This document shows positions 21,200 through 21,992 of a DNA stretch of 64,000 nt, in pieces. A model generated the notes under the pieces. It was not told the origin of the DNA and did no database searches. It saw only the letters and a program-made list of their open reading frames with translations. The DNA is from Escherichia coli (GTDB lineage Bacteria > Pseudomonadota > Gammaproteobacteria > Enterobacterales > Enterobacteriaceae). Numbering within the stretch: the stretch's first letter is position 1; every line of letters starts with the position of its first letter. The position numbers were made by a program, and so were the translations under genes. The stretch is from the NCBI RefSeq assembly GCF_041248615.1, contig NZ_CP158426.1; one strand, written 5' to 3'.

Positions 21200-21520
21200 T
21201 TAAAACCCCTTTTGATTTGTTAAAACACCTTGCGGTCTGGCAACTGCAAGTGTCAAACAAGAAATCAAAAGGGGGTCCCAATGGGGAACGAAAAGAGCTT
21301 AGCGCATACCCGATGGAACTGTAAATATCACATAGTTTTTGCGCCAAAATACCGAAGAAAAGTGTTCTACAGAGAGAAGCGTAAAGCAACAGGCAGTATT
21401 TTGAGAAAGCTGTGTGAGTGGAAAAGTGTACGGATTCTTGAAGCTGAGTGCTGTGCAGATCATATCCATATGCTTGTGGAGATCCCGCCCAAAATGAGCG
21501 TATCCGGCTTTATGGGATAG
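21200..21520 (+). pseudogene. IS200 5' fragment: leader hairpin plus tnpA residues 1-~80 (MGNEKSLAHTRWNCKYHIVFAPKYRR...), 3'-truncated
   Basis: Inverted repeat ccccttttgatttg / caaatcaaaaggggg before the ATG; HxH-type IS200 TnpA N-terminus. Confidence 0.75.
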
Positions 21521-21529
21521 ACGGCATTA

Positions 21530-21992
21530 ATCGCTTCCGGGAAGCCTTTCAGGCCGTCCACGAAGGCGATAAGGATATCGTTCAGGCCGCGATTTTTCAG
21601 TTCCGTCAGTACATTCAGCCAGAACTTTGCACCTTCATTTTCGGCCAGCCACATATCCAGCAGCTCTTTCTGACCGTCGGTATTGATGCCCAGCGCGAGG
21701 AACACCGCTTTGTTAATGACACTCCCGCTGTGACGAACCTTAACCACAATACAGTCAAGATAAACAATGGGATACAGTGCATCCAACGGTCGGTTTTGCC
21801 ATTCAGAGACCTGTTCTTTAACCGCATCGGTCACTTTGGATATCAGCGTGGGCGAGACATCGGCGTCGTACATTTCTTTGAAGGCTGAGGTAATTTCGCG
21901 GGTAGTCATCCCTCTGGCATACAGCGCCAGGATCTGGTTGTCCATGCCGGTAATGCGGGTCTGATTTTTCTTCACCAGTTGTGGTTCGAAGG
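21530..21992. repeat. ~462-bp direct repeat of 121-582 (shared 3' segment of two IS256-family variants)
   Basis: Identical antisense translation and matching nucleotides; 5' parts of the two elements diverge. Confidence 0.8.

Follow-up and report, generated by a model that had tools for sequence, protein, structure and literature searches.

IS200, as studied in Salmonella by Beuzon and Casadesus and by Ellis, Trussler and Haniford (PMC4513863), is the source of the regulatory RNAs art200 (STnc490) and 5'tnpA (PMC4513863, PMC5435999, PMC12594629). In the published map of the element a bidirectional terminator occupies nts 12-34, tnpA transcription starts at nt ~40, a stem-loop at nts 69-138 sequesters the Shine-Dalgarno sequence AAGGGGGU, and art200, which is 90 nt long, has its 5' ends at nts 153/154; in E. 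coli, a segment of nts 45-298 was enough for art200 to be expressed, as were the first 323 nt for native tnpA'-lacZ, and the Y125F substitution gives a catalytically dead TnpA (PMC4513863). The 5'tnpA RNA acts on host mRNAs in Salmonella, the described targets, invF and PinT, being Salmonella-specific (PMC4513863, PMC5435999, PMC12594629).

In the 64,000-nucleotide stretch of E. coli chromosomal DNA analysed here, referred to as the window, the 5' part of an IS200 element meets, within an aerobactin/sit pathogenicity island, the 5' part of an IS256-family element lying on the other strand. The joint between them most likely originated from a deletion that took away the back ends of both elements, and not from the insertion of one into the other. 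The features of the locus, in window coordinates, are as follows.

18896-19810: sitA

20066-21058, plus strand: 5' ~990 bp of an IS110-family element (Pfam Transposase_20 and DEDD_Tnp_IS110; comparison with intact copies)

20144-21074, plus strand: PGAP pseudogene, IS110 family

21058-21139, plus strand: left end of IS4, nt 1-82, starting with the terminal repeat TAATGCCGATCAG (91.5% identity to K-12 IS4)

21082-21109: promoter-like site in the IS4 stub

21113-21130: terminator-like hairpin and T-run in the IS4 stub, just before the insG start

21140-21519, plus strand: IS200C, nt 1-382 of ~710, right end absent (collinear alignment and blastn, 96.9-97.7%)

21152-21159/21163-21170, plus strand: IS200 left-end hairpin CCCCCAGC-TAG-GCTGGGGG, stem of 8/8 bp (fold; Rfam)

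21202-21291, minus strand: putative position of the antisense sRNA gene art200 (by homology, with coordinates transferred from PMC4513863)

21206-21274, plus strand: long stem-loop of the tnpA 5'UTR (inverted repeat; MFE and centroid folds; Rfam consensus structure)

21281-21517, plus strand: truncated tnpA of 79 codons, TAG stop at 21518-21520 (ORF, Pfam, protein comparison)

21281-21517, plus strand: PGAP pseudogene, IS200/IS605 tnpA

21514-22251, minus strand: PGAP pseudogene, IS256 family

21515-21519, no strand: novel joint, the bases GGATA being assignable to either parent (junction comparisons)

22323-21515, minus strand: first 809 bp of ~1315, i.e. the first two-thirds, of an IS256-family element (Pfam; nucleotide and protein comparison)

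22310-22323, minus strand: left inverted repeat of the IS256-family element (comparison with relatives)

22324-22331, no strand: surviving copy of the 8-bp target duplication, AATGCCGG (comparison with SC418 and FORC_031)

22553-22807: frameshifted pseudogene of a UCP030791-family "phage-derived" gene

23172-23696: sodC, intact, for a periplasmic Cu/Zn superoxide dismutase, to the right of the IS256 stub

The pieces of IS110, IS200 and IS256 are already annotated as pseudogenes in RefSeq. The identical record of strain NRZ14408 lists iucABCD-iutA, an intact IS1414, sitDCBA, three transposase pseudogenes, the UCP030791-family pseudogene, sodC, a group II intron remnant and IS100. The 82-bp IS4 stub is unannotated in the RefSeq records and had not been mentioned in the earlier, sequence-only reading of this DNA. 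In FORC_031, relatives of the UCP030791/sodC module adjoin a Kiwa (kwaAB) anti-phage system.

From 21135/21140 to 21519 the window aligns without rearrangement to intact IS200C copies, with blastn identities of 96.9% (APEC O1) and 97.7% (strain B19), the differences from these copies amounting to one 2-nt deletion after 21170 and seven substitutions; past 21519 the divergence from IS200 is complete. The sequence-only reading had recognised here an IS200 5' fragment with its leader hairpin, an identification borne out by the Y1_Tnp and STnc490 matches and by the 13-bp inverted repeat. Collinearity with IS200 over 21200-21520, the property by which that reading wished to be judged, was found and extends further left, to 21140; the starting point that it gave, 21200, does fall within IS200, but 60 nt of the element upstream had been missed, so that the upstream hairpin (21152-21159/21163-21170) and the left end at 21140 lay outside the interval described. 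The element begins at 21140 with GTGCACAG… and is preceded by a T-rich pentanucleotide; the recurrence of the same start behind a T-rich pentanucleotide in three intact copies, as seen by flank comparison, indicates that 21140 is the true transposition end of IS200. With nt 1 of the element set at 21140 the published features of IS200 fall as expected, the hairpin at 21152-21170 corresponding to the bidirectional terminator and the stem-loop at 21206-21274, which is the leader hairpin of the sequence-only reading, to nts 69-138 (PMC4513863). A deletion of TT specific to this copy (21170/21171) directly follows the terminator hairpin, ~6 nt before the position at which tnpA transcription is expected to start, and could have altered the promoter or terminator activity of the stub. 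A C-to-T change at 21307 is a further marker of this copy.

The long stem-loop of the leader is built on an inverted repeat in which 21206-21218 (CCCCTTTTGATTT) is perfectly paired over 13 bp with 21262-21274, the arms being extendable to 16 nt at 94%; the 13-bp arm has just two occurrences in the 64 kb window against 0.18 expected. The repeat reported earlier is therefore real, but the second arm quoted for it, caaatcaaaaggggg, is one base wrong and does not occur in the sequence, which reads gaaatcaaaaggggg. The leader region has a folding energy of -59.6 kcal/mol (z=-3.6), and the Rfam model STnc490 (RF01405) matches 21150-21271 end to end, terminator hairpin included, with 133.7 bits and E=4e-28 (gathering threshold 56). 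This match is on the tnpA-sense strand, and there is thus a strand discrepancy between the Rfam model and the art200/STnc490 RNA, which is antisense to the 5'UTR (Ellis et al. 2015, PMC4513863).

Downstream of the leader, tnpA had been said to end after ~80 codons and does so after 79, at a TAG stop that is itself a product of the joint. The 79-residue product matches Pfam Y1_Tnp with E=9.8e-22 over profile positions 2-69 of 121, is 95-96% identical to residues 1-79 of the 152 residues of IS200C TnpA and keeps the HUH motif (H61-I-H63). The C-terminal half of the protein with the catalytic tyrosine (TnpA residues 80-152) is absent from the stub by protein comparison, and the right end of the element, with its subterminal hairpin (...CCGGAGGATATTTATT), is missing from a stub in which homology stops at 21519; neither the 3' part nor any other piece of IS200 was found within the 64 kb window. 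Having neither the right end nor the catalytic tyrosine, the stub cannot transpose, and on these grounds it is to be regarded as a fragment and not as a functional member of the IS200/IS605 family.

The second partner, a truncated IS256-family element abutting on the other strand, had likewise been correctly perceived: minus-strand homology begins at 21515, with an overlap of a few bases. Its transposase starts at 22251 and continues for 246 of 402 codons, matching Pfam Transposase_mut with E=5e-74 over profile positions 17-246 of 379. The segments LDC and VDGLKG are conserved and TNAIE is absent; we take these three segments to hold, respectively, the D, D and E of the DDE triad, an assignment under which the stub would keep both D residues of the triad region and lack the E-bearing part. 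Since the right inverted repeat is also missing, along with the last 156 codons, this stub too is unable to transpose, the right repeat and, by that assignment, the third catalytic residue being lost. Both elements are dead as transposons, each having a single end and an incomplete catalytic domain.

The closest relatives of the IS256 stub, 91-92% identical, are copies found in WG5::PA2 and on plasmids CP057078 and NZ_CP027256, whereas its amino-acid identity with IS1414, of which an intact copy is present at window 14889-16204, is 80-81%. Intact IS1414-type copies, in fact, lie at 14889-16204 and 57028-58343, both with the transposase on the plus strand and 98.8% identical to the SC418 copy; the former lies on one side of sitABCD and the truncated copy (21515-22323) on the other, inverted with respect to each other in the manner of a decayed composite transposon. 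The ~100-bp left end of the truncated element (repeat plus leader, window 22222-22326) is matched at 94-95% by a solitary relic present in ~4,000 of 5,426 E. coli genomes; in K-12 MG1655 this relic separates cvrA from dadX and bears the annotation of a partial hypothetical protein.

What lies beyond the far end of the IS256 stub is informative as to its origin. In strain SC418 an intact IS256-family copy with both of its repeats occupies the same site and is flanked on both sides by AATGCCAG, and FORC_031 has the uninterrupted empty site AATGCTGG; the far flank of the stub (22324 onward, AATGCCGG CGCTGG…) is orthologous to these sites and represents the target into which the element itself originally inserted.

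The joint falls inside both elements, at nt ~382 of ~710 of IS200 and at nt ~809 of ~1315 of IS256. IS200 homology extends as far as 21519 and that with IS256 starts at 21515, so that the overlap amounts to 2-5 bp depending on the parent assumed: the bases TA (21518-21519) are the only ones certainly shared with the closest IS256 relatives, the four closest of which have GGGTAGAC, with a TAC codon, where the window has GGATAGAC, and for GGATA (5 bp) to be common to the two parents, the IS256 one must have carried a TAT codon, as do IS1414 and the SC418 copy. The IS256 sequence across the joint, with either a TAT or a TAY codon, had no exact-pattern match in two scans of contigs representing one genome per species. 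By our own calculation an overlap of at least 2 bp is expected by chance in roughly one in six random joints, and the 2 bp seen here would not go beyond chance; no significant microhomology is claimed. A microhomology of 5-6 bp (GGATA or GGGATA) had been considered and was downgraded, as the copy of WG5::PA2 and those of the two plasmids (91-92%) show GGGTA.

Among 5,426 complete E. coli genomes, at least 54 (~1%) have the exact junction: 53 complete genomes have it at 99.8-100% identity, and it also occurs in strain 98232. Over positions 21000-22400 the window shares 99.9-100% identity with 53 complete genomes of E. coli. Poultry isolates make up many of the carriers listed, and SMS-3-5 is among them; no plasmid carrier of the IS200/IS256 joint was found.

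Two further joints precede the IS200 fragment. The IS110-family element is frameshifted and ends 103 nt before its stop codon; it is 90.5-91.2% identical to the intact copies of SC418 and FORC_031, homology with which stops at 21058, and it is there, at 21058/21059, that the terminal repeat of IS4 begins. The IS4 sequence in turn is adjoined by IS200 at 21139/21140, after a hairpin and T-run and 3 nt upstream of the insG ATG, and its continuation from nt 83 onward (TTATGCACATTGG…) is missing here. With the terminus of the incoming element found at each of these joints, the sequence is that of an IS4 inserted into IS110 (21058) and of an IS200 inserted into IS4 (21139/21140). Neither the remainder of IS4 nor the 3' end of IS110 has a match anywhere in the 64 kb window, and the absence of the far-side halves at both joints fits a later deletion.

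The 76-82 bp at 21058-21139 had no counterpart in the compared loci, and it was a sensitive search that identified them as the left end of IS4. A supposed recurrence of the insertion of IS200 into IS4, prompted by EC581 matches extending into the left flank, turned out to be merely a similar T-rich flank beside yncH, and an IS200 fragment next to a sitA-like pseudogene on a pAA-type plasmid proved to be an unrelated scar. As to the IS110-family piece, it is without the ~330-bp region that intact relatives carry 3' of the gene; the newer PGAP label of the element is "RNA-guided transposase", and a guide (bridge) RNA, if any was encoded in the lost 3' region, would be gone.

These data are probably best accounted for, and we hold this with some confidence, by nested IS insertions followed by a single deletion that joined IS200 to IS256 within the aerobactin/sit island of E. 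coli. The starting arrangement would have been an IS110-family element beside the UCP030791-family gene, between which an IS256-family element would then have inserted with the production of an 8-bp duplication; IS4 would have entered the IS110 element at 21058, and IS200C would have entered IS4 at 21139/21140, behind a T-run and 3 nt upstream of the insG start codon. Finally, illegitimate recombination would have deleted ~2.6 kb, joining IS200 nt ~382 to IS256 nt ~809 and removing the 3' ~330 bp of IS200, the ~1.35 kb remainder of IS4, the 3' ~430 bp of IS110 and the 3' ~505 bp of IS256. A single deletion could explain all the losses because in the nested-insertion model the four missing pieces are contiguous. 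The order of the insertions and the single deletion are what we infer from the identities and extents of the fragments, the internal position of the joint, the absence of the halves and the shared IS256 site, all of which are directly observed.

The present-day relatives of the presumed ancestor are SC418, in which an intact IS110, 431 bp, an intact IS256-family copy with its 8-bp duplication and the UCP030791 gene follow one another in the same order and orientation as here, and FORC_031, which has IS110 and the UCP030791 gene without IS256. This synteny, together with the left repeat of IS256 at the same target site, supports a deletion within one DNA molecule; SC418 and FORC_031, only ~80-91% identical to the window, are nonetheless to be taken as relatives of the ancestor and not as the ancestor.

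The sequence-only reading had concluded that one element truncated the other, and this is the claim that did not survive the analysis. That an IS256 should have transposed into IS200, or an IS200 into IS256, is suggested by the way in which the fragments abut exactly and face each other, and such events are common in this island, two real cases (IS4 in IS110 and IS200 in IS4) being found just upstream. However, an insertion would place the terminal repeat of the incoming element at the junction and the other half of the target beyond it, and for this reason the joint does not qualify as one: no terminal repeat of either element is found there, the left repeat of IS256 being 809 bp away at 22323 and its right repeat absent; the right end of IS200 is also absent, the second halves are not in the window, where no other piece of IS200 exists, and what flanks IS256 on its far side is not IS200 but the site at which IS256 itself originally inserted. 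The duplication to be expected upon insertion is 8 bp for IS256 and none for IS200. Truncation of one by the other thus seems very improbable, and both elements were cut by a third event. Nor does it appear any more probable that this event was an adjacent deletion promoted by the transposase of IS256 or IS200; IS elements do cause deletions of this kind, of which strain 98232 offers an IS1203 example nearby, but these begin at the intact end of an active element, whereas both ends at the joint are internal and no terminus is present at 21515-21520. Least credible of all is an assembly artefact or a chimeric join across repeats, which the repeat-rich nature of the region might suggest, given that the identical joint occurs in 53 complete genomes that were assembled independently and come from several countries and hosts.

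A somewhat stronger, albeit still unlikely, competitor is a stepwise production of the joint, or its origin from illegitimate recombination that linked two different molecules, for instance a plasmid-borne sit/IS segment and a chromosomal IS256-sodC segment. Aerobactin and sit modules resembling those of ColV-type plasmids make the island a mosaic, with many IS scars, and the right-hand segment has other left flanks in 702/18 and 98232. These flanks, however, are traced to later events, namely homologous recombination with the first IS256 copy of the window in 702/18 and an IS1203-associated replacement that kept the joint in 98232; furthermore, the left-hand IS110 and the right-hand UCP030791 gene retain the order and orientation that they have in SC418 and FORC_031, which would be a coincidence had the exchange been intermolecular. 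The pre-deletion allele was not found among the sampled genomes, all 53 records with the IS110-IS4-IS200 joints having also the IS200-IS256 joint, and since no sampled genome keeps the pre-deletion state, one deletion and several steps are indistinguishable.

Nested insertions ended by a single deletion being the preferred history, the later fate of the locus can be followed in two types of strains. The window contains two IS256-family copies in direct orientation, at 1-913 and 21515-22323, which share a 455-bp block (21531-~21985) that is 100% identical, while the 5' ~340 bp of the truncated copy are only ~65% identical to the copy at the window start, so that the element is internally mosaic. 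In strains 702/18 and EF5-18-41 a full-length IS256, a hybrid of the two copies, adjoins sodC, and the aerobactin/sit/IS200 segment is absent. As a three-way comparison of the element of 702/18 shows, its 3' side is 100% that of the upstream copy (which ends at window 913) and its 5' side 100% that of the truncated copy, with the switch point inside the 455-bp block in which the parents do not differ; to its left, strains of this type have the YadA-like and sigma-like genes that flank the upstream IS256 copy. On this evidence, the two strains derive from a window-like arrangement by homologous recombination between the direct repeats, with loss of ~21.4 kb that include aerobactin, IS1414, sitABCD and the IS200 stub. 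The full-length IS256 of 702/18, 99.9% identical to the window right of 21526, had initially made this strain a candidate for the ancestral state, and the three-way comparison identified it as a derived recombinant.

In strain 98232, on the other hand, IS1203 cuts the IS200 stub at 21423 and the IS200/IS256 joint is kept. Here IS1203 takes the place of a segment equivalent to window ~14640-21422, comprising IS1414, sitABCD, IS110, IS4 and, of the IS200 stub, the initial 283 nt, a replacement that looks like an IS-associated adjacent deletion by IS1203.

A separate question is whether the IS200 stub could have been kept for its RNAs. The promoter of art200 would lie, by the transferred coordinates, at ~21297-21335, still inside the fragment, and across the art200 region the stub is identical to IS200C. 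It contains IS200 nts 45-298, the first 323 nt and the first ~125 transcript nt that form 5'tnpA, and in this way it retains all the cis elements of both art200 and 5'tnpA; a residual sRNA output from the stub is possible. That it has been maintained as a trans-acting small-RNA locus, whether to repress the intact IS200 copy that these genomes have elsewhere or to target host mRNAs, as 5'tnpA does in Salmonella, is quite unlikely in our estimate. Weak hints in this direction come from the leader, which in 141 nt has no substitutions vs 7 in 239 nt of coding sequence, and from the length of the retained segment, which is longer than the minimal constructs from which both RNAs are expressed in E. 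coli. Such a retention is opposed by the 2-nt deletion beside the tnpA start site, the conservation of the leader in all IS200 copies anyway and the loss of the relic without obvious cost in the derived strains.

The locus is an ordinary scar in a virulence island and matters little beyond its correct annotation. It offers nevertheless a worked example of the fact that abutting IS fragments need not mean insertion, the position of the element termini being what decides, here in favor of deletion. The 809-bp IS256 stub has served in some strains as a homologous-recombination partner in the loss of the 21.4-kb aerobactin/sit module, and the IS200/IS256 joint, being unique, is a convenient lineage marker for this variant of the island.

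Compared with the described systems, the IS200 stub has in common with IS200C of E. coli and IS200 of Salmonella (PMC4513863) the left end, the offsets of the terminator hairpin and of the stem-loop holding the Shine-Dalgarno sequence, the sequence AAGGGGGU itself, the start codon and the HUH motif. It differs from IS200C in being cut at nt ~382, with loss of the right end and of TnpA residues 80-152, and in its 2-nt deletion; with respect to two IS200C reference copies, its TnpA carries the changes Q27K, R35K and I37T. In the case of IS4 (insG) of K-12, the first 82 nt, terminal repeat included, are 91.5% identical and all that should follow is absent. As to the IS256 stub, it is collinear with the IS256-family copies of E. 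coli and with IS1414 through the left repeat, the 5' leader and the first 246 codons, and it shares with the SC418 copy the insertion site with its 8-bp duplication; unlike the intact copies of the family, it lacks the last 156 codons and the right repeat and is left with one copy only of the duplication.
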